A stretch of 35,284 nt of DNA from a virus (taxonomy: Duplodnaviria > Caudoviricetes): the IMG/VR virus record IMGVR_UViG_3300027892_003173, positions 1 through 35,284 of that record, one strand, 5' to 3'. The notes beneath the pieces were generated by a model. The model was not told the origin of the DNA and ran no database searches. It saw only the letters and a program-made list of their open reading frames with translations. A program made the translations under genes and the position numbers. Below are positions 6,891-35,248 of the stretch, one piece after another. Numbering within the stretch: position 1 is the stretch's first letter; every line of letters begins with the position of its first letter.

Positions 6891-9800
6891 ATGGCTCTCG
6901 AAAACACTCCGTCACCAGAACAAGATTCACGGCTTAAAGAGATAGAGAGCTGGTCCTCTTCGAGCATTCCGCAGCTTAAGGCCCTGTATCAGGGGCACAA
7001 GGCGGGCGGAACCCTTACGCCCGAGCGCGGCGCAGCCATCGCGGCGGTAACGGCGAAAAAAGTGAACGAGCTGAAAAGCCAGCTCACGTCCATAGATTCC
7101 ACTACGGCGCTCGCCAACGAGGCCGCTAAAATGAAGGTGGACGGAAACGTAGACGACGACACCCTTCGCGCCGCAGGGATCGACAAGCACTTCGACAAGC
7201 TGGCCAAGGCCAACTACAATGCTTCACGTCTTGGAGCCGTTGGCGATGTGGCGGGAGACGTCGCAATGGGCCTCGGGAAAGAAGTCCTATCCCTGACTCC
7301 CTATGCCCCCCTTGCCCGAGCTGTAACGGGCGACGACACGCTACTTAATTCCACCATCGTTGTCCCTTTTGTTAAGGGGGTAAGCGGAGCAGTTGCGGAC
7401 TCCGTGGCCGCGCCCTTTTCTGAGGACGCTAGGAAGCGTGTCGTGGCTTCTGCTGAGGCAGGGGCTAGAGGTAGTGCAAACCTAATTTCTCAGGCCTTTA
7501 CGCGTGGAATGTATGAGGACGCCGCCAAACGGGGCGACTTCGGTCCGCTGCTTTTCGCCGAGATGGCTCGATACGAGGACTACCAGAAGGCTGTTGCTGG
7601 ACGTGGGGCACTAGCTGAATTTTCTGGGCAGTCCAGTGACTTGTCACCCAAGGATCGGGCCCGCGTAGAAGTGCAGTCGATGGCGTATGACCCGCTTAAC
7701 GTCATACCGGGTGCCGCAGCGGCCAAGGTTGGAACACTTGCGGGCGGAGCAGCCCGAAATGCAGCCCTCGTGGCGGCACGAGGGGCTTCTGCGGTGCCTG
7801 CGGCCGCAGGCCTACTCCAAAAAGCCGCTGTGGTCGGAGAAAAGGTTGCAGGTGGGGTCGCAAAGGCCCTCGACACCACGCCTAAGTCCGTCGGGCTGGC
7901 GCGACCCCTTGAGACGCTAGAGCAGGCCGCTGCCGCAGCCTCCGCCAAGCCTTCCGTCGGCGTGTTCACCGCCCCGCAAGCCCTCGGTGAGCGCTTGGTT
8001 ACGGTCGGCAAGGGCATGGTCGACAGGGCTACGGCGGCCCGCAACGCTTCTGGCGCTACGAGCATGTCAGGTTCGGCCATCGCCATCGGCGCGGCTATGG
8101 CTGGTGCCGACCTTGGCACCTCCTTAACGGCAGGCCTTGCCACCTCTATGTTTAGCAAGGCAGCTAAACGTCGTCTTGGGGTTGCCGCAGTCGGTAAGGC
8201 CACCGAACTAACGGGCAACCTCCTTATCGGGACCAAGGCCAGCCAAGCGGCATTCCGAATGCTCGACGACTACCGTCTAGCCAAGTCTGCGCTCGTAAGC
8301 GCGGGCGTGGGTGCCACAGCCAGTTTGCCGTTCGCACTCCTTTCTAACGACCCAGAGGAGCAGGCTCAAATTGTTGCTACGGGTGGAACGCTCGGCGGCC
8401 TTTTTGGCGTCGCTAACACTGGAAAGGCCCTTTTGAACGGGGTGGCGCTTAAGGCTGCGGGCTTAACCCCGGGCGCAAAGGCCGAACCCCGTGGCATAGC
8501 CTCCAAGCCCTACGGGCTCTTTCCCGAGGCAGACGCTTTGCACTCCAAGGCGGACACCATGCTGTCCAACGCGGGTGCCGACTACGTCGATTCCATGCGG
8601 ACCCTCCTCGGGGACCGCGCCGAGTATTACGCCGCCTCATCGCCTGAAGACGCGGCAAGACTCGCAGCCTCGATGGGCTACAAGGTCGACGGCAACGCCC
8701 AAGGCTTCTTCTTTGTGCGTCCCTCCGACGGTAAGCGGGTTGCCGTCGCGATTGTCGGCTCAGAATCTAGCGGCCACGAGGCTACGCACGCCCTGCTCTC
8801 GGCACTGAAGGCCGACGAGAACGTCGCGCCCTTTATTGCTGAGGCCTATGCGGCGGCAAATTTAGCGCTCGGGGCCACTGACGCGCCTGCATTTACGACA
8901 ACCAAGCGCGAGTATGAGACCTTGGCGGGCCGCACCATCGAACAAATCATCGGATCGAACGATCCCGTAAAGGTTCGCGATTACCTTGTAAATGAAGTGC
9001 TGGCCGAGCACGGATCGGTGCTGTTGGCTGGGCTTCCCGCTGGTAAACTCGGTGGAGACGCCACGGTCACGCAAAAACTAGCGCAGGGGTTCCTCAAGAC
9101 CGCTGAGAACTTTGGCGGCCGTAACGTCATGTCAGGCGACCGCACCATAGGCACGTCGCGCACCCTGCGCTACAACCCTCAGTTTAATGTGCTTGACGCG
9201 CTGAAGAACGTCATGTCGGCGGTAAAGCTGGAGAACAGTCCAGATGTCGCCTACCTCGTTGACGAGGCCAAGAAGACTGTTCGGAACGAACCTGACGATC
9301 TCCGTTCAGAGGGCATCCTCAATCCGATTCCGCGCGATCTGTATTCGGACGCCAACTACGATCCCAACGCGCCCACGCTCGCCAAGACCGAGGGCAATGT
9401 GCCCTTTGGTGACGTAGACAATCCCCTTTCAGGTTACGACGCAGGCGCTCCAAGCGGCCGCGTAATCTTCCCGCGCCAAGAAGCTGCGCCAGAAGTAACG
9501 CCGCTGGCGGACGCCGTAGTGACGCCAGAAGTGGCACCGACTCCCGAGGTAGCGCCGTTGGCGGACGCCGCAGTCGCACCAGAGGTGGCTCCGACCGCTG
9601 AAACGGCCCCGCTGGCCCAACCTACCCCGCCTCCAGAGGCAAACGTAGTGACCGCCACCGACGGCACAATTCTGGGCACTAACGCCAAGCAAGTCGGCCC
9701 GATCCGCGCGTCACGCGACGGCAAGAATTTTGCCGAAGTCGAATACACGGGCCCTGACGGCACCCCAGCCCGTTCCTACGTCCCAGAGGAGAACTTTAGA

Positions 9801-12800
9801 CGCGGAGACAACACCCAAGCCCCGTTCACGGGAGAGGTGATTGCCCCCGGCACGGTTCCTCAGATCAGGTCCACTCCCGAAGCCCGAGCCGCACTCGCTG
9901 GAGTTGGCTCGGCTCCCCGCACGTCCAACACGACGTCCGAAGAGGTTCGTTCGGTCGTGGAAAAGCAGGCCGCAGTGCCATACAGCGAACGCAAAGTGTT
10001 CCGCGCCGACTACGACTCAGCCGTGAAGCCGTCAGAGGGTGACCCAACCCGAGACGTGCGCGCCGAACAACTGGCAAACGCTTCCAAGCTCGACGCCCTC
10101 GGCCTCACCAACCCGCTACGGGCTTCAGCCGACAAGGCCTTCATTCCGACGACCGCAGGAAAATCAAAGAACGCCTTTTTTGCCTACAACCTCGACAAGG
10201 TGGCCGCAAATCTCGACCGCATCGCCGTCTGGGGTTCGGAGAATCCAAAGTATTTCCAGAGCCTTAAGACGGGTTACGACAGCCCCACCTCGCCAAAAAT
10301 CCTTGCGGACCTAAACACCTACCAAAAGAATCAGGCCAATGGCTACGCCGGAGATGGCCGCAAGTTGGCCACGGTCACCGTGGATAAAGGCGGCGCGGGT
10401 CCGATCCCCGTCAACCCTAACTACACGCCGACGATCCTTCCAAAAGAGCAGGCGCAGTTCCTGAACCTCCTGATGGGAACCTACGGCAAGGGACGGTCTG
10501 CAACCAAGAGTTTCCCCGACGTGTTCTCGACCCGACTTGCCGAGGCAATGGGCGTGGGCGTGCATTTAGCTGAGGGCGAGACTGCCACGGGCAAGCCTTC
10601 GCTCACCGTTGAGGCGAACGCGATGGCCAAGAAACTCGAGGAATTGGGCTTTGATCCTCGGGACCTTGAAACCGCGTTCGAGAACCTGCGCTACGACCGA
10701 TTCCTCACGACCCCCGAGGAAATTAAAGGTGCAACGCTGGCACCTGCCTACGAGCAGGTGGTTCAGGCTGGCCTTATGCCCGCGCATAGCCCCGAAGGCG
10801 CACAATACACCGACTCTGTGCTCGCTAAGCTCAGGGCCGTCACGAGCGAGGGCAGCGACGGCGACACCTTCAATCAGGACGGCACACAATACACTGGCGG
10901 CGGCCTCGTGGTGCCTCTAGTGTCACGGAATTTTGACCGCAACGCCATCAAGATTGACGACATTCAGGCCTTCAAGGACGCGAACGCGGACAAGATGTCG
11001 CCTGCGGTGAAGGTGGGAGTCTACAAGTTCCCCAACTCCGAGGACATGAGCGTCGACCTGAACATTGTCGTCGACCCCAAGAACGAGGCGCTGGCCCGTC
11101 GTGTAGGGGCCGAGCTTGGACAGGAGAGTCTCTTCGATCTTGGCAGCTTTGACAACGTCAAGACGGGGGCGTCGGGCAAGAACACCCTCCCGCTCAATCC
11201 TGAGCAGTTCAAGCGCCTTGGCGACGCCCTGTCAAAGGGCGAGTATCCGCAGGACGTCATCAACGAAGCCTACGCGCAGAACCCCGAAATCGCGAAGGCC
11301 ATCAAGGCCGAGACGGCGGTAAAGCCTGCGGCCTTCATGCCCGCTGGAAAAGTAGATTCTCCCGAGTTTAAGAATTGGTTCGGGGACTTTAACGACCCCA
11401 ACGCGTTCTCTTCGCGACAAAAGGCTCCTGTCTCAGTGGCAGTAGAGCGAGTAGACGGAAAACTACAGCCTAAAAAGTTAGTTCACGCCACTCGATTTGG
11501 TTTTTCAAAGTTTGAGGTCGGGCGAGACACCGTAAACTCTAGTGTGTTTGGCGACGAAACTACCCAGCGCCACGCCATATTCCTTGCGGATTCGCCTGAA
11601 CTCTCAAATCAATACGTCACCTCAGCGAGAGGCAAGGTTTCTGAAGGGGCTCGAACGCTTCCTGTTTACGCCAGCTTAAAATCCCCCCTCGACCTTACTA
11701 AATCCTTCGACGCTTACGCGCTCGGAGAAGAGATTGGAGTATCAGGACGTTGGATACAAAACATCGGTGAAACGTGGCAGTTATTTGACGGTGAGAATGG
11801 AAAGGCGTTTGTAGAAGGCGCAAAGCAGGCTGGATACGACGGGGTGATCTTCAGTGAAACTGGTCCAGACAGACTAAACGACTACGAGGTATACGCGGTT
11901 TTTTCTCCTGAACAGGTTAAGTCTGCGATCTCGCCGACATTCGACCCCGCCAACCCTGCGGCCTTCATGCCCGCAGGCAAAGCCGACGTGCAGTTTCAGC
12001 GTGACATCCCGCTGAAGGGCTCAATGAAGGGCGTGCTCGACCTTGTTCACTTCTCTTCAAAGGCGCTTACCGAGGTCGACCCCAACCAGTCCTTCGGGAA
12101 GGGTGCGGCGACCGCAGCCGATAGACAGGGCATGAACAAGACGTTCTTCTACACCAAGGGAACGGCGTATGAGGGCCCTATCGCGGGCCGCAGCAACGTC
12201 TACACCGCACAAGTGGACGGAAAGTCGATCTACAACTACAACACGGACCCGCTGGACGTTCGCTCGATTGTCAACCGCGAAAAGCGTGACCAAGCCATCA
12301 TCGACGCAGGCTTCAAGGGCTACTACGTAGAGACAGAGGGCTTCGACGCGGTCGCGATGTTTGACAAGGTGAAGGTCAATGCAGCGCTTCGTCAGGACGT
12401 GATGTCGAAGGGCCAAATGAAGGCGCTCGGTTTTGAGCCGCAAGTGCGCCAGAGCGAAGCCGACCAGATTAGGTCTGAGATTGTGAAATCTCCTGAATAT
12501 AAAAAAGAAGCTGCGCGCATTGCGAAGCAGGTGGGATCGTCAACCAACGGCGCGTATTTTGACACCCTGTTGCAATGGGTCGACTCCAAGGTTGACGAAC
12601 GTATCGGCGGTTCTGGTTCGCCCACGCTTTCCGAAAATGCAATCGGAGGGCGTCCATTTTCTCCTGAAATTCGCGATCTTTTACAGCGCCGTAAAAACGG
12701 AGAAAAAATTTCTCAGGCCCAATTCGACGAAGCGGTTAATGCTACGTTTCCATCGACTTTGGTGCCTATCCCAACTTTTGAGTCACTTCCCACTCGAAGA

Positions 12801-14762
12801 GAGATCGACAACGCAATCGACAAGGGACAGAGGGAATCGCGCATAGACGTAAGCACGCTTGAAGCGGGCGATAAAGTTACGTTGCGGCAAGACGTCCCTT
12901 CGTGGACTAGGAAGGGCGTTGGAGTTGTGACCGTTCAAACACCCCTCGGAAAAGGATACGAAGCCAGCGCGGCTATTCTTAATCCCGTGTTTAAGACTAA
13001 CGAAAAGGCGTCTTTAAAAATAGCAATGGGAGACGCAAAAGGACCGCACATCGCTATATCGGGCGAGTGGGACGCCAATCAAGCCGTGCCAGACAATCTG
13101 GGAAGCTGGACGCAGGTTGGATACAACCCAGATCGCCATTCGTTTTACTACGAACGCGGCACGAACAAAGAGGTCGTGAGTGGAGATCGGGCATTTCAGG
13201 TTGGAAACACAGTGTTCGTAGAGAACCCTGTGTATGGCAAAGGCTCGAGTTCAGAGTTGCGCTATATGCCCGCTGAAAAAGCGGACGGCCCTCTCAGTGA
13301 CGCAACGGTGGGTATGGCAATGGACGCGCCTGAAGGTGCTCGCATTATTTCGGAAGGGGGCGATTCCGACACCCTCCCTCTTTTCCAGCGAGTTGACGCC
13401 AAAGGAAATCCAATGTTCGAGCCCTTAAGCCGGACTGAAAAACTCAACGGCGACGAAGCGCTGCCAAAAGTGGTGAAGCAGGACTACGATTTCTTGGAGT
13501 CTCCAAGCCTCCGGGACTATTCGGGGCAAGGACCTGAAGACGCTTCTGTTCCCGACTTTGATTCTCTCCCCTACAAACTTACGAAGGGAGAAAAAGAAGC
13601 CCTTTCTGCCGCCGTAAAATCTGGCGCAATCGACGACGCCAAACGTCGTCTGGCGGCTAAAATTAGGAAGTCGATGGAGAACCCAGAAATTGCCGCTGGC
13701 AAAGGGTGGTATGGTCGCATGAGGCAAAAGTTGCTGGCTGCTTTAGGTGAGGATGGCCGTGAGCTATTCTCCCAGTTGCTCGGGGCTACCAGTGCGCGCA
13801 CGCCCGTGGACGAAAATTTCATGCAGGCCTTCGACGCCTACGAAGGGGTTGGAGAAGGTCGGTATTCCGATATAATCCAAAAATACTTGAAGCTCAGAGA
13901 AGCCTCTCAGGTAAAAAACAAGGCGCAAAAACTTAAGAGCCTTCAGGCATACGTTGAAAAGACGGGGGCAGAGTCGGTGGTTCGTGGTGACGTGATTGAA
14001 TTGGAGAAGAAGATTACTAAGCTCGGTGGGAAGAATCGGCTCGCCCTCCGTAAGAAAATAAACGCCTTGAAGGCGGTGCTAGACCTTCCTAAGGAAGAGC
14101 GCACCGCAGGGCAGTGGATGGCCCTCGAAATTATGGGCTCTCGGCTTACTCCGATGCGTTCAAATGGAAAACGCTTCAACGCCAATTCACTGCCCGTCCT
14201 AAAGGTGTTGGCTGGAGTATGGCTCGCGGACGCAAAGGCCCCGAAGACTCCGAATTTCGCGGGGAACCTCACTGGGCGCACGCTTCAAGCCACCATCGAC
14301 GTATGGGCGGCCCGAGCCGTTCGAGACCTGCTCTATTCGGGCTCAGGAAAGCCTTGGAGAATTCAACCTAAGGCCGAGGGAGCGGTGAGTAACGTGGACT
14401 TCGCGGTGGGACAAGAGATTTTCAAGCGTGCAGCCAAAGAGCTTGGAATGGCCCCAGACGACTTGCAGGCGATTGCGTGGTTCGACGAAAAAAACACGTG
14501 GCAACAACGTGGCTGGTCTGAGAGCACCGCAGGCAACGCTAAGTCTAGCTTCGATGGGATTTTCGACATTTTCTTCCCTGCGGGAGAGAAACCGAGAGGT
14601 TTTGAAGAAGCTGTGAAGCTCGTAATGGCCGAAAGAGAAGCACGTAAAGCCGCTGGGGAGCTTGAACTCCCCCCGCAAGAGGGTGATAATACCCCTCTCG
14701 CCGACGAAGATATTGACTTAAATTCCGACGAACTCCCCCTATCCAATGCCCGAACAAAATAA
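6891..14762 (+). CDS. giant polyvalent internal virion protein: membrane-like N-terminus, zincin metallopeptidase, multiple effector domains
   Basis: 2623 aa. Gly/Ala-rich hydrophobic helices (~8060-8450). HEATH at 8775-8789 plus EVLAE at 8994. ART-PolyVal-type domain (SPEFKNWFG..LVHAT..IFLA..LPVYASLKSPL..AGYDGVI..EVYAVFSPEQVKSA) at 11337-11966. C-terminal GWY..KTPNF..NLTG..TIDVW..LQAIAW domain. Confidence 0.85.
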   Translation: MALENTPSPEQDSRLKEIESWSSSSIPQLKALYQGHKAGGTLTPERGAAIAAVTAKKVNELKSQLTSIDSTTALANEAAKMKVDGNVDDDTLRAAGIDKHFDKLAKANYNASRLGAVGDVAGDVAMGLGKEVLSLTPYAPLARAVTGDDTLLNSTIVVPFVKGVSGAVADSVAAPFSEDARKRVVASAEAGARGSANLISQAFTRGMYEDAAKRGDFGPLLFAEMARYEDYQKAVAGRGALAEFSGQSSDLSPKDRARVEVQSMAYDPLNVIPGAAAAKVGTLAGGAARNAALVAARGASAVPAAAGLLQKAAVVGEKVAGGVAKALDTTPKSVGLARPLETLEQAAAAASAKPSVGVFTAPQALGERLVTVGKGMVDRATAARNASGATSMSGSAIAIGAAMAGADLGTSLTAGLATSMFSKAAKRRLGVAAVGKATELTGNLLIGTKASQAAFRMLDDYRLAKSALVSAGVGATASLPFALLSNDPEEQAQIVATGGTLGGLFGVANTGKALLNGVALKAAGLTPGAKAEPRGIASKPYGLFPEADALHSKADTMLSNAGADYVDSMRTLLGDRAEYYAASSPEDAARLAASMGYKVDGNAQGFFFVRPSDGKRVAVAIVGSESSGHEATHALLSALKADENVAPFIAEAYAAANLALGATDAPAFTTTKREYETLAGRTIEQIIGSNDPVKVRDYLVNEVLAEHGSVLLAGLPAGKLGGDATVTQKLAQGFLKTAENFGGRNVMSGDRTIGTSRTLRYNPQFNVLDALKNVMSAVKLENSPDVAYLVDEAKKTVRNEPDDLRSEGILNPIPRDLYSDANYDPNAPTLAKTEGNVPFGDVDNPLSGYDAGAPSGRVIFPRQEAAPEVTPLADAVVTPEVAPTPEVAPLADAAVAPEVAPTAETAPLAQPTPPPEANVVTATDGTILGTNAKQVGPIRASRDGKNFAEVEYTGPDGTPARSYVPEENFRRGDNTQAPFTGEVIAPGTVPQIRSTPEARAALAGVGSAPRTSNTTSEEVRSVVEKQAAVPYSERKVFRADYDSAVKPSEGDPTRDVRAEQLANASKLDALGLTNPLRASADKAFIPTTAGKSKNAFFAYNLDKVAANLDRIAVWGSENPKYFQSLKTGYDSPTSPKILADLNTYQKNQANGYAGDGRKLATVTVDKGGAGPIPVNPNYTPTILPKEQAQFLNLLMGTYGKGRSATKSFPDVFSTRLAEAMGVGVHLAEGETATGKPSLTVEANAMAKKLEELGFDPRDLETAFENLRYDRFLTTPEEIKGATLAPAYEQVVQAGLMPAHSPEGAQYTDSVLAKLRAVTSEGSDGDTFNQDGTQYTGGGLVVPLVSRNFDRNAIKIDDIQAFKDANADKMSPAVKVGVYKFPNSEDMSVDLNIVVDPKNEALARRVGAELGQESLFDLGSFDNVKTGASGKNTLPLNPEQFKRLGDALSKGEYPQDVINEAYAQNPEIAKAIKAETAVKPAAFMPAGKVDSPEFKNWFGDFNDPNAFSSRQKAPVSVAVERVDGKLQPKKLVHATRFGFSKFEVGRDTVNSSVFGDETTQRHAIFLADSPELSNQYVTSARGKVSEGARTLPVYASLKSPLDLTKSFDAYALGEEIGVSGRWIQNIGETWQLFDGENGKAFVEGAKQAGYDGVIFSETGPDRLNDYEVYAVFSPEQVKSAISPTFDPANPAAFMPAGKADVQFQRDIPLKGSMKGVLDLVHFSSKALTEVDPNQSFGKGAATAADRQGMNKTFFYTKGTAYEGPIAGRSNVYTAQVDGKSIYNYNTDPLDVRSIVNREKRDQAIIDAGFKGYYVETEGFDAVAMFDKVKVNAALRQDVMSKGQMKALGFEPQVRQSEADQIRSEIVKSPEYKKEAARIAKQVGSSTNGAYFDTLLQWVDSKVDERIGGSGSPTLSENAIGGRPFSPEIRDLLQRRKNGEKISQAQFDEAVNATFPSTLVPIPTFESLPTRREIDNAIDKGQRESRIDVSTLEAGDKVTLRQDVPSWTRKGVGVVTVQTPLGKGYEASAAILNPVFKTNEKASLKIAMGDAKGPHIAISGEWDANQAVPDNLGSWTQVGYNPDRHSFYYERGTNKEVVSGDRAFQVGNTVFVENPVYGKGSSSELRYMPAEKADGPLSDATVGMAMDAPEGARIISEGGDSDTLPLFQRVDAKGNPMFEPLSRTEKLNGDEALPKVVKQDYDFLESPSLRDYSGQGPEDASVPDFDSLPYKLTKGEKEALSAAVKSGAIDDAKRRLAAKIRKSMENPEIAAGKGWYGRMRQKLLAALGEDGRELFSQLLGATSARTPVDENFMQAFDAYEGVGEGRYSDIIQKYLKLREASQVKNKAQKLKSLQAYVEKTGAESVVRGDVIELEKKITKLGGKNRLALRKKINALKAVLDLPKEERTAGQWMALEIMGSRLTPMRSNGKRFNANSLPVLKVLAGVWLADAKAPKTPNFAGNLTGRTLQATIDVWAARAVRDLLYSGSGKPWRIQPKAEGAVSNVDFAVGQEIFKRAAKELGMAPDDLQAIAWFDEKNTWQQRGWSESTAGNAKSSFDGIFDIFFPAGEKPRGFEEAVKLVMAEREARKAAGELELPPQEGDNTPLADEDIDLNSDELPLSNARTK
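9486..9617 (+). repeat. degenerate APEV(A/T)P linker repeats in the giant protein
   Basis: APEVTPLADAVVTPEVAPTPEVAPLADAAVAPEVAPTAETAPLA. Confidence 0.8.
11325..11974 (+). repeat. exact 20-bp direct repeat cctgcggccttcatgcccgc flanking the ART domain
   Basis: Copies at 11325-11344 and 11955-11974, 630 bp (210 codons) apart; both encode PAAFMPA. Confidence 0.95.
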
Positions 14763-15549: not shown

Positions 15550-16962
15550 ATGGCCACCTCCGACCAAAAAATTGCCGCCATGAGAAAGCGAGGGGTGTCC
15601 GAAGCGGACATAGCCAGAGTCGTGGCGGCAGACGAGAAAGCTGCGGCCGAAGACGCCCGCACAGGTGCAAACCCAAATCAAGCCACTGCGGCCGCCGTGA
15701 CGAGCGGATTTAAGACGGCACAAGCTACCCCGCCCGCACAAGCTACCCCGCCCGCGCAAGCCGCACAACCCGTAAGTGCTACCTTTCCTGCACAAGCTTC
15801 ACAGCCCGCACAAGCTACCCCTCCTGCACAAGCTACCCCTCCTGCACAAGCTACCCCTCCTGCACAAGCTACCCCGCCCGCACAAGCTACCCCGCCCGCA
15901 CAAGCTACCCCCGCTGCAAAAGTTGCAGAAGCTCCACGCAACATCTACGCAAACGTCAACGGTGGAGCCCCCTTAAATTCTGGCGCAACGCGCGAGGATA
16001 ACGTCCAACGAGCTAAGGATGCAAAAGCACTGCCACAGATTGCAGCGATCTACAACGCCGCCAGCGCCATCGAGACTGGCAGCGCCCCGAATCAGGTGAT
16101 CAGAATGGTCATGGACCCTCAGACGGGCGCTATCACGCGCCAAGTGACCGACAGCCGCACGGGTAAACCCTATCAGGCTCAGCTCACTCCCGCCGAAATC
16201 GCAGGTGGGTCGTATGCGGGCGCGGGCTCTGCGCTCCCCAGTGGATACGCTGGCATGGCGCGAAAAGGTGGTGGATACACCACTATAGCTCCCGACGGAA
16301 CCAGCAAAACGTATAAGTCAGAGGCCGAGGGTTTAGCTGGGGCTACGGCACAAGCTGCCCTAGCTGCACAAGTTGCCCCCGCCACACTAGCCGCTAATTC
16401 GGTTCCGACTACGCCACCTCCGACTACGCCGCCCGTTGCAGCCGTTACGCCGCCTACGCCGCCTACGCCGCCTACGCCGCCCGTTGCAGCCGTTACGCCG
16501 CCCGTCAAAACAGTAGACCCAGCTCCAAACTCAAAATATCTTCGCCTCGCCAACGCAGTGGTAAATCCATTGGGCGGTATAATCGAAACGATGAACGAGC
16601 TTAACGTAAAGCCTGCTCAATCTGCTAACCTACCCGCGACTGACGAGTATTCTAATCTATTAAACGCTTTGACCGAAAGAAATAAGCAACAGGCTGCCGT
16701 TGATGCTGGCAACGCTACTCCAGATCAGGTAGAACTTCTCAAAAGCAACAACGCTAAAGTAGACGAGCTTAAAGAAAGGCTATTGAAAACTATAAACACG
16801 GCAGGGTCCTCTACTACTCCGTCTACGGCTACGACCGCTGAAGGTGTGATGAGCCCTAAAGCCTACCGAGCCGCCCGCGAAAAGCTCGGCCTCTCGCAGC
16901 AAGGACAAGCCAACCGCGAGAAAGTAACGCTTGAGGAAATTAAAAAGCGCGAGGCTAAGTAG
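15550..16962 (+). CDS. low-complexity Pro/Ala/Thr repeat protein, last gene of the + strand block
   Basis: 470 aa with QATPPA and PPT/PVAAVT repeats and a coiled-coil-like C-terminus. Confidence 0.7.
   Translation: MATSDQKIAAMRKRGVSEADIARVVAADEKAAAEDARTGANPNQATAAAVTSGFKTAQATPPAQATPPAQAAQPVSATFPAQASQPAQATPPAQATPPAQATPPAQATPPAQATPPAQATPAAKVAEAPRNIYANVNGGAPLNSGATREDNVQRAKDAKALPQIAAIYNAASAIETGSAPNQVIRMVMDPQTGAITRQVTDSRTGKPYQAQLTPAEIAGGSYAGAGSALPSGYAGMARKGGGYTTIAPDGTSKTYKSEAEGLAGATAQAALAAQVAPATLAANSVPTTPPPTTPPVAAVTPPTPPTPPTPPVAAVTPPVKTVDPAPNSKYLRLANAVVNPLGGIIETMNELNVKPAQSANLPATDEYSNLLNALTERNKQQAAVDAGNATPDQVELLKSNNAKVDELKERLLKTINTAGSSTTPSTATTAEGVMSPKAYRAAREKLGLSQQGQANREKVTLEEIKKREAK
15721..15918 (+). 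repeat. 18-bp coding tandem repeat, 11 in-phase units (QATPPA)
   Basis: caagctacccc(g/t)cc(c/t)gca: 2 near-perfect units, 3 degenerate, then 6 near-perfect. Confidence 0.95.
16405..16505 (+). repeat. tacgccgcc / gttgcagccgtt coding repeats
   Basis: Encodes PTTPPPTTPPVAAVTPPTPPTPPTPPVAAVTPPV. Confidence 0.9.
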
Positions 16963-17620: not shown

Positions 17621-17955
17621 CCGAGGTGCAGTATCTGGTATGCGGATACGTCCTCGGGAAGGTATCGGGTAAGGAACGGGCCGATGTCGCCCTCCTTTAG
17701 CAGGCTACCGCAGGGAATGATGTGATCAATTTCGACCTCCTCACGGGGGAACCACTCGCCGCAGGCCGCACACTTAAACTCCCACTTCAGGAGCGGGCGG
17801 GCCTTGTTCTCAGACGGGCGGCGGGAGGCCATTAGGGCCTGCTTTTTTGGCTCCCAGTTGTGGCGGAACAGACGACGAAGGTGGGAGCGTATGGCCCCCC
17901 AATACTTTGCCTCGGTCCATGTCCCGAGGTTGCGTGTCTTGGCTGGTTTTGGCAT
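17566..17955 (-). CDS. HNH endonuclease
   Basis: FKCAACG...EIDHIIPCG...YQILHLGCHSVKT. Confidence 0.85.
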   Translation of the reverse strand: MPKPAKTRNLGTWTEAKYWGAIRSHLRRLFRHNWEPKKQALMASRRPSENKARPLLKWEFKCAACGEWFPREEVEIDHIIPCGSLLKEGDIGPFLTRYLPEDVSAYQILHLGCHSVKTNAERAAKKTSK

Positions 17956-18704
17956 TAGCAGTCGAGGTAGCAGCGAAGCTTGAGCATGGCCTTCTTTAGT
18001 CGGCGCTGTATTGTGTCTACGGATACGCCCTCCCGTTTCGCCATCTCAACTTCGGACAGGCTGAGGTCAAATCTCCACCGAATAAGCCTCCGGTTCAGTG
18101 GGCTCAGTTTTTCCCGCGCGGTCTTCAGGCGAGAAAGCATCTCGGTCTTTTCGGACACGTGGCTCTCTTCGTGGGGGGAGTCGTGAAAGTCTGGGTCGAA
18201 CGCGCACGTGTTGCCTCGGGTGGGCAATTCACGGAGCACTGCTAGGCCCGCCAAAGTTAGGCCGAGGGCAACGGCAATCTCGTCGTCCTGCACCCCGTCC
18301 CGCTCTAGGCGCTTCATCGCGCAGAAGTCATCGACCACGCCCTCGGGCACACGAACGGTGTGCTGTTGCAGGCGCAGGAGGCGGAGTCTTTTGCTGATCC
18401 AGAACGACGCAAAGTAGGAGAACCGACGGCCCCTCGCCACGTCGAAGCGGTCAATCGCTTCCACGAGGCCAAGATTTGCAGCCGAAATGGCGTCGTCCTC
18501 CGAGCACCCCGGTCGTTGGCGCACAGAATCTGGCGTTGAGCCCATGCTCTTACGAGCCATGTCAAGCGCCCAGTGGAGGTAAGCGTTGACGATTTCGGTC
18601 TTGTCCTGCGAGACGACGTAGCGGGCGAATATCTCCCTCTCCTCCTCGATGGATATTTTCCGAGGGGGCGGGAGGATCGTGTGGGTGTAGTAGGTGCGGG
18701 TCAC
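17955..18704 (-). CDS. phage-encoded sigma-70-family RNA polymerase sigma factor
   Basis: Region 1.2-like ISIEEEREIF; region 2 DDAISAANLGLVEAIDRFDVARGRRFSYFASFWI; region 4 LSPLNRRLIRWRF..LSEVEMAKREGVSVDTIQRRLKKAMLKLR. Confidence 0.88.
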   Translation of the reverse strand: MTRTYYTHTILPPPRKISIEEEREIFARYVVSQDKTEIVNAYLHWALDMARKSMGSTPDSVRQRPGCSEDDAISAANLGLVEAIDRFDVARGRRFSYFASFWISKRLRLLRLQQHTVRVPEGVVDDFCAMKRLERDGVQDDEIAVALGLTLAGLAVLRELPTRGNTCAFDPDFHDSPHEESHVSEKTEMLSRLKTAREKLSPLNRRLIRWRFDLSLSEVEMAKREGVSVDTIQRRLKKAMLKLRCYLDC

Positions 18705-24894: not shown

Positions 24895-25518
24895 CTAGCA
24901 GTCTGGCGTCATTGCGGTGTCCTGCGCGTTGACCCTGCTGGTCTCCGCATGCCACGTCTCAGGGCCCATCACGGTGTAGTCTAGCGGCACGTTGGGCTTA
25001 ACCCAAGAGTCATCCTGCCAGAGTATGCGATTGTTCGGCTGGGCGGCGATCTGACCTGAGCCGTCGTTGAGCGTCAAAACATGGTAGCACTTGTGCTCCG
25101 ATGGGAAATTGGAGTAGCCGTTGTCGGTGTGGTCGAGGGTGAACCAGTAGGTGCCAGAAACGAGCAAGCCGTCGCGCTGCCGATACTGGCACGACATATC
25201 GCGGAGGTATTCGTAGCGGGTGACAGAAAAATCCCACCCGTGGCAGTCCCACATCTGTAGCTCGTTGAGGGCGTGGCAGGGCGCGCCGACCTCGGGTAGC
25301 TCGTGTCGGAGCATGTGCAACGGTATACGGGCCCACTGCGCCCCCGACTCGCAGAGGATTGAAAAGTGCAGAGCTCGGGATGGGATTGACGTGACCCCGA
25401 ATATCACCGCCTTCTCAAACGTCCCCGCTTCGGAGGGGTTTAGTGTTCGCAGAATGGAGCGGTCGACGTAGCCGTAAAGGTGTTGCGGGACTGAGGCGTT
25501 GTGACAGTGGTGGTTCAT
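24895..25518 (-). CDS. conserved phage protein of unknown function (LQxWDC / EHK / AQPNNR type)
   Basis: FGVTSIPSRALHF..GAQWARIP..LQMWDC..GTYWFTLD..SEHKCYH..AAQPNNRILW, a motif set I recall from hypothetical proteins of aquatic phages. Confidence 0.7.
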   Translation of the reverse strand: MNHHCHNASVPQHLYGYVDRSILRTLNPSEAGTFEKAVIFGVTSIPSRALHFSILCESGAQWARIPLHMLRHELPEVGAPCHALNELQMWDCHGWDFSVTRYEYLRDMSCQYRQRDGLLVSGTYWFTLDHTDNGYSNFPSEHKCYHVLTLNDGSGQIAAQPNNRILWQDDSWVKPNVPLDYTVMGPETWHAETSRVNAQDTAMTPDC

Positions 25519-34552: not shown

Positions 34553-35248
34553 ATGCAAACCGAACCCCACTCCTACCGCGTGCAGCCTGTGACCCGCATG
34601 GACTGCGCGCCGTTTATCCTCGGGATACATTACGCCCGCCGCTGGCCTAGCCTGAGCCACGCCTACGGCCTCTACCGAGACGAAGAGTTGGTCGGGGTGG
34701 TCACCTACGGGACGCCCCCAAGCTCGACCCTCCGCGTGGGCATTGCGGGGGCGGACATGGCCCCGCATGTGCTGGAGCTGAACCGACTTTGCCTGCGTGA
34801 CAATTTAAAGAACGAGGCCAGTCGTCTGGTCGGGGCGAGCCTGAGGCAACTGCCCAAGGGCCGGATCATCGTTTCGTTCGCCGACACCGAGCAGGCTCAC
34901 AAGGGCATCGTGTATCAGGCGTGCTCCTTCACGTATCACGGACTCTCAGCGAAGCGCACCGACTGGAAAATTAAGGGTCGTGAGCACCTGCACGGGCAGA
35001 CCGTGTCGGACGAGTTCCGAGGGCAGGAGAACAGGGCGGCACTCATGCGCGCGAAATACGGCGATGACTTCTTTCTCGCACCCCGTCCACGCAAGCACCG
35101 ATACATCTACCTGACGGGCTCCTCGAAGTGGCGGCGCGAGGCGTATGCAAAAATCAAATACGCAAGAGAGCCGTTCCCAAAGTCTGCACCAACCGAAATC
35201 GTTAGTATTCACAATCTGGATACTCCCAGAGGTCTGGATGCCACCTAA
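34553..35248 (+). CDS. mom: Mom-like GNAT-fold DNA modification enzyme
   Basis: IHYARRWPS..YGL..LVGVVTYGTP..VLELNRL..KNEASRLVG.SLR.L..VSFADTEQAHKGIVYQACSFTYHG, the motif order of phage Mu Mom homologues. Confidence 0.82.
   Translation: MQTEPHSYRVQPVTRMDCAPFILGIHYARRWPSLSHAYGLYRDEELVGVVTYGTPPSSTLRVGIAGADMAPHVLELNRLCLRDNLKNEASRLVGASLRQLPKGRIIVSFADTEQAHKGIVYQACSFTYHGLSAKRTDWKIKGREHLHGQTVSDEFRGQENRAALMRAKYGDDFFLAPRPRKHRYIYLTGSSKWRREAYAKIKYAREPFPKSAPTEIVSIHNLDTPRGLDAT

Follow-up and report, generated by a model that had tools for sequence, protein, structure and literature searches.

Does a giant phage protein that joins several unrelated enzymes in one chain carry the signals by which these enzymes could be set free? 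The question is raised by a protein of 2623 amino acids (aa) encoded in a stretch of 35,284 nucleotides (the window, i.e., the whole DNA analyzed), which is a linear virus record (Duplodnaviria; Caudoviricetes; IMG/VR record IMGVR_UViG_3300027892_003173, positions 1 to 35,284) estimated to be about 49% complete. A sequence-only reading of this DNA had described in this protein a zincin-like metallopeptidase followed by modules punctuated by a repeated (F/Y/L)-M-P-A motif, and had proposed that the motif is a self-cleavage site. Phage polyvalent proteins with a zincin-like metallopeptidase domain (MPTase) have been described, and their autoproteolytic release proposed, by Iyer, Burroughs, Anand, de Souza and Aravind in 2017 (PMC5512222). 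Like these proteins, the window protein is giant and combines an HExxH...E metallopeptidase with an ADP-ribosyltransferase domain (ART-PolyVal) and variable domains, so that both hallmark domains are present and several unrelated domains, differing among relatives, share one chain. Unlike those described in the available text, it belongs to a family with a core domain of its own and with a defined tag that switches between lineages. The available text of PMC5512222 contains no junction motif, the word "linker" being absent from its main text, and our literature search, which left subscription journals largely aside, found neither a junction motif nor a cut site for polyvalent proteins.

Results

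A tag of three residues with lineage dialects

The search for proteins sharing the core domain retrieved 78 relatives, down to 29% core identity, giving 79 proteins with that of the window; none of the 2,706 candidates was a longer homologue. The query (P0005, residues 925-1216) contained the tag that ends the core; therefore, conservation at the core end is partly selected for, which does not apply to the internal tag counts. The core ends with F-M-P in 58 proteins, F-L-P in 13, L-M-P in five (the clade of the window), Y-M-P in one and F-M-L in one, and in one further protein its end is unresolved. Downstream of the core, the 58 proteins of the F-M-P group carry 210 [FY]MP (5.0 expected) and 27 [FY]LP (22.0 expected), and no [FY]MP occurs in the 49,040 residues upstream of it. 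The 13 proteins of the F-L-P group show the reverse, with 52 [FY]LP (4.1 expected) and only three [FY]MP downstream of the core. When each 70%-identity cluster is represented by a single protein (49 representatives), 138 [FY]MP remain versus 3.4 expected, and 37 [FY]LP versus 2.8 expected. Furthermore, P0063 has [FY]-M-L both at its core end and at three internal sites (0.11 expected), and enrichment in [LM]MP is confined to the clade of the window (seven versus 0.77 expected). Overall, the dialect of the core end is the internal majority in 62 of the 65 decidable rows and differs in three, ten further rows being undecided. On the peptidase and core trees, F-L-P proteins occupy no fewer than two separate positions.

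At least two internal tags are found in 66 of the 79 proteins and none in three. The residues flanking the tag vary freely and the three tag positions are held; since the alanine following the proline is kept in only 61 of 210 tags, the signal consists of three residues and not of the four initially described. Taken as a whole, these data indicate that the tag is very probably a border signal selected at the protein level. Because related phages switch the tag at nearly all joints together, it likely marks cut points.

Tags and module exchange

When the tags are masked, 268 of the 280 are found no more than 15 aa from the end of a BLAST alignment (45% in the shift null, maximum 52%), and 27% of the 4,684 alignment ends fall 10 aa or less from a tag (6% under the null). 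No tag lies inside any of the 161 domain matches of six profiles. Splitting the family at its tags yields 349 modules that form 84 clusters. The expectation that xMP would recur at module borders with varying cargo was thus borne out in distant relatives. The closest five relatives have modules inserted or swapped at x-M-P, and tag 1 is the point where relatives and population contigs insert extra modules. In seven of eight lake runs, population joints and loose ends gather at tags (clusters at 10774-10783, 11331-11341, 11979-11996 and 13266-13277). Population variants have lost the ART module in frame or have replaced it, and the deletions, seen in several lake runs, retain one whole tag. A conserved motif thus stands at domain borders, as in self-processing viral polyproteins, save at one tagless border of the window protein: most tags are at borders as the sequence-only reading held, but not every domain border carries a tag.

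The predicted peptidase

The zincin site announced by HEATH (629-633) and EVLAE (702-706) is indeed conserved in the 77 aligned rows: H629 and H633 are kept in all 77, E630 in 74, E702 in 76 and E706 in 73. The structural model (predicted local distance difference test, pLDDT, 85) has strands at 57-62, 85-89 and 96-101, the HExxH helix at 106-121 and the helix bearing E702 at 172-192 (model numbering), which is the predicted gluzincin layout: an HExxH helix after a three-stranded sheet and a Glu ligand on a later helix. Six of the eight best fold matches are folds of the type of lethal factor or Pro-Pro endopeptidases (PPEPs), PPEP-2, PPEP-3 and the catalytic fold of anthrax lethal factor being the closest solved ones; docking-type domains are also among the matches. 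A single-sequence fold reached a pLDDT of only 38 and its fold search was uninformative. We claim no equivalence between the conserved Y675 and the catalytic tyrosine of either lethal factor or PPEPs. Apparent parallel G628P changes in two F-L-P groups of the peptidase tree were dropped as a candidate, because the core tree joins both groups.

Layout of the protein and of the window

Table 1. Features of the 2623-aa protein and of other genes in the window (nucleotide positions of the window).
Feature	Position	Strand	Residues	Details
Polyvalent protein gene	6891..14762	+		2623 aa, about 279 kDa, no cysteine
N-terminal Ala/Gly-rich region	6891..8450	+		weakly hydrophobic helices at residues 150-169, 291-309, 466-485
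Zincin-like metallopeptidase domain (predicted)	8451..9260	+	521-790	H629-E630-x-x-H633, Y675, E702-x-x-A-E706; 77-row conservation, fold model
Family-defining core domain	9957..10772	+	about 1023-1294	ends with G-[FLY]-[ML]-P in almost every relative
Tag 1, L-M-P-A (AGLMPAH)	10773..10784	+	M1296	Met at nt 10776
Cargo module 1	10776..11333	+	domain 1308-1456	present in 8/79 proteins
Tag 2, F-M-P-A (AAFMPAGK)	11334..11345	+	M1483	Met at nt 11337
Cargo module 2, ART-PolyVal ADP-ribosyltransferase, PF18760	11466..11933	+	1526-1681	Pfam E 1e-12, above cut-off
Tag 3, F-M-P-A (AAFMPAGK)	11964..11975	+	M1693	Met at nt 11967
Cargo module 3a	12036..12374	+	1716-1828	widespread, 45/79 family members
Cargo module 3b	12777..13241	+	1963-2117	weak PF25735 match under cut-off
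Tag 4, Y-M-P-A (LRYMPAEK)	13263..13274	+	M2126	Met at nt 13266
Cargo module 4 with DUF7178	13266..14762	+	DUF7178 2448-2530	unrelated modules in its place in close relatives
P-L-[AS]-[DN]-A-x-V	5751		144	gene 5322
P-L-[AS]-[DN]-A-x-V	9501		871	2623-aa protein
P-L-[AS]-[DN]-A-x-V	9555		889	2623-aa protein
P-L-[AS]-[DN]-A-x-V	13290		2134	2623-aa protein
P-L-[AS]-[DN]-A-x-V	14961		8	gene 14940
Sigma-70-type factor	17955-18704
Ferredoxin-labelled PHROG match	24895-25518
Mom-like DNA-modifying protein	34553-35248

The N-terminal region (Table 1) had no match in the family library search and may be a membrane-crossing or ejection part; the model of the core domain had no clear look-alike in the fold comparison. 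Cargo module 1 had no Pfam or PHROG match and a single weak NCBIfam row far under the cut-off; an assignment to DUF3293 was rejected, as the module failed to join that profile. Module 4 with DUF7178 (13608-14600) represents the most frequent type of cargo, present in 46 of the 79 proteins. A PDB sequence search with it gave no match; its T-I-D-V-W segment may resemble helix-hairpin-helix DNA glycosylases. In P0003, P0052, P0054, P0071, P0049 and others, a cut at the last tag would free a short basic or Pro-rich tail. Twenty of the 79 family proteins have a Met-Pro N-terminus.

The window also encodes DNA polymerase A, a helicase, a sigma factor and Mom; no head gene was recognized in this incomplete record. 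It is best represented in freshwater metagenomes: eight of the 24 listed runs contain at least half of its words, four of these eight being possibly source runs, and the one RNA run has a share of 0.22. The presumed gene starts show no Shine-Dalgarno pairing and have A+T-rich, unstructured leaders. Besides the 2623-aa protein, the products of genes 5322, 14940 and 15550 and of the cut-off first open reading frame are devoid of cysteine, and the 19 others of the 23 remaining proteins have two to 18; within the family, 75 of 79 members lack cysteine. The neighbouring genes gave no significant family match, and their products would have a virion role. The lack of cysteine, as in these neighbours, the position after tail-like genes and the precedent of polyvalent proteins suggest that the 2623-aa protein is a packaged ejection protein, part of an ejection-protein set. 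Three neighbouring cysteine-free proteins share five copies of P-L-[AS]-[DN]-A-x-V, and more than one copy was obtained in none of 2,000 shuffles, for a pattern picked post hoc; a looser form has nine matches in the last 60 aa of seven of the 79 family members (shuffle maximum: six). This motif is possibly a packaging or ejection signal. The 470-aa cysteine-free protein encoded at 15550-16962 carries tandem QATPPA repeats.

Discussion

The border code reported here is real, extends over the whole family and belongs to a known class of proteins. The explanation that we favour is that the predicted zinc protease carried by the chain itself would cleave it at the tag and thereby free the cargo enzymes. 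Fusion would let a single packaging and ejection event carry all cargo; the peptidase would refold with zinc in the host and then cut beside the proline, probably following packaging or injection. The Met-Pro bond is favoured as the scissile one by analogy with PPEPs, which take proline at P1′ (PMC10413326), although their substrates have proline at both P1 and P1′, whereas a Met or Leu precedes the proline of the tag. Cuts at Met-Pro would give pieces of 134, 20, 23, 47 and 54 kDa, the last four beginning with proline, and the freed ART fragment would modify a host target by ADP-ribosylation. Precedents for virion-borne polyvalent proteins include DdrB and DarA of P1, which are proteolytically processed (PMC5512222 for DdrB), with neither the cut sites nor the responsible protease stated in the available text, and gp47 of phi24B, which has a metallopeptidase domain to which its authors attribute a possible peptidoglycan-degrading role; PMC9503650 provides a further one.

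Several observations weigh against self-processing. The sub-lineage of P0062, P0068 and P0077 carries HDxxH in place of HExxH yet retains nine tags (F-L-P joints). Co-evolution of peptidase and tag is not demonstrable with the family trees, as there are only three independent pairs, too few for significance. The giant virion RNA polymerase of coliphage N4, which is ejected and has an HExxH subdomain (PMC13434306) like the window protein but differs from it in carrying an RNA polymerase, is packaged unprocessed (PMC5512222), and the protease site of ArdC is dispensable (PMC7213743). In the window protein, the joint near residues 1903-1925, between two separable domains, has only R-P-F-S-P, and other lake-run ends lie away from tags, notably at 12589-12597, a real module border that is tagless here; module 3b, which has its own upstream tag in four of six carriers, has none. 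All four Met-Pro dipeptides of this protein lie inside (L/F/F/Y)-M-P-A, at M1296, M1483, M1693 and M2126 as first reported, and at least three copies of [FYL]MPA occurred in none of 20,000 shuffles; but some tripeptide of equal rarity attained four copies in 179 of 1,000 shuffles, and tags 2 and 3 have an exact 20-bp DNA repeat in common and are thus not independent, so that the window alone is only suggestive. The conserved border tag and zincin site speak for the self-cleavage proposed from the sequence; however, because of the undemonstrated co-evolution, the tags of the HDxxH relatives, the intact N4 polymerase and the dispensable ArdC site, we regard it as somewhat probable and go no further.

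The tag could instead be a handle that is never cut, such as a mark for pausing, docking or unfolding. Its reader might be the ejection channel, a chaperone or the zincin fold in a purely binding role, and modules would pass and refold singly. This would explain the border location and the concerted change of dialect equally well, and it is consistent with the HDxxH relatives, with the docking-type fold matches, with the N4 polymerase and with a last tag merely 33-44 aa from the C-terminus in seven of 75 proteins. However, a pure binder would have no need of the catalytic Glu or of the zinc ligands, which are kept in 73 to 77 of the 77 rows. One short tag per border is also how polyprotein cut sites usually look, and we consider an uncut handle unlikely.

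Cleavage of the tag by another protease, either a phage head-maturation protease encoded outside the window or a host protease, appears more doubtful still. It would accommodate the HDxxH relatives and the undemonstrated co-evolution, and the record is incomplete and without recognized head genes. However, a head protease usually has several virion substrates, yet the tag is absent from the 23 other window proteins except for one F-M-P in a minus-strand gene; for a host protease, dialects that follow phage lineages are hard to explain.

That the tag is only a DNA recombination joint, homogenized by short-homology exchange and not read in the protein, is improbable. Population joints are located at tags, tags 2 and 3 share their repeat, and all four tags are encoded by ATGCCCGC, the common core noticed initially. 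Nevertheless, population contigs also write the proline codon as CCT or CCA, and the genome prefers ATG-CCC at other sites too (four of six other Met-Pro pairs); therefore, no DNA-level cause is required for the shared octamer. Moreover, three positions are held between free flanks, and the breakpoints of the ART deletions lie some 20 bp out of register with the repeat and still leave a whole tag. The codon evidence comes from short ends of close relatives only, because no DNA of distant relatives was found: nothing was confirmed in scans of viral contigs or genomes, tblastn of GenBank phages gave no match, and the metagenome scan returned no more than two loci, both at 100% identity, of which one is the contig of the window itself. 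Module swaps may nonetheless be facilitated by short homology.

Finally, internal or relic start codons of fused genes are highly improbable, even though genes 1692 (which does begin with ATGCCCGC), 5322, 14940, 17955 and 20904 start with Met-Pro, the stretch after M2126 resembles the beginning of gene 14940 and M1296 has a Shine-Dalgarno-like run (-6.1 kcal/mol), though distant from the ATG, because 13 relatives have Leu in place of Met, the residue preceding Met is conserved, which starts do not require, and the context of the tag Mets (upstream A+T 0.40, folding -13.1) is that of ordinary internal Mets (0.40, -10.5), unlike that of 20 presumed gene starts (0.61, -5.3).

That polyvalent proteins may cut themselves was proposed in 2017, and this family makes the question directly testable, since it offers putative cut sites, an enzyme that may act on them, predicted sizes of the fragments and the natural dialects F-M-P, F-L-P, F-M-L and L-M-P; its HDxxH sub-lineage is a natural test of the peptidase as tag reader. 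A protease that recognizes a short sequence next to proline could also be of use as a reagent. Furthermore, the clean modules into which the tag divides these giant proteins constitute a list of candidate anti-defence and takeover enzymes. Overall, it is an evenly balanced possibility that a large family of tailed phages uses a polyprotein in the style of RNA viruses, in which an injected protease of lethal-factor/PPEP fold would read three-residue dialects and tag-flanked domains would act as plug-in effectors set free in the host during the first minutes after infection.
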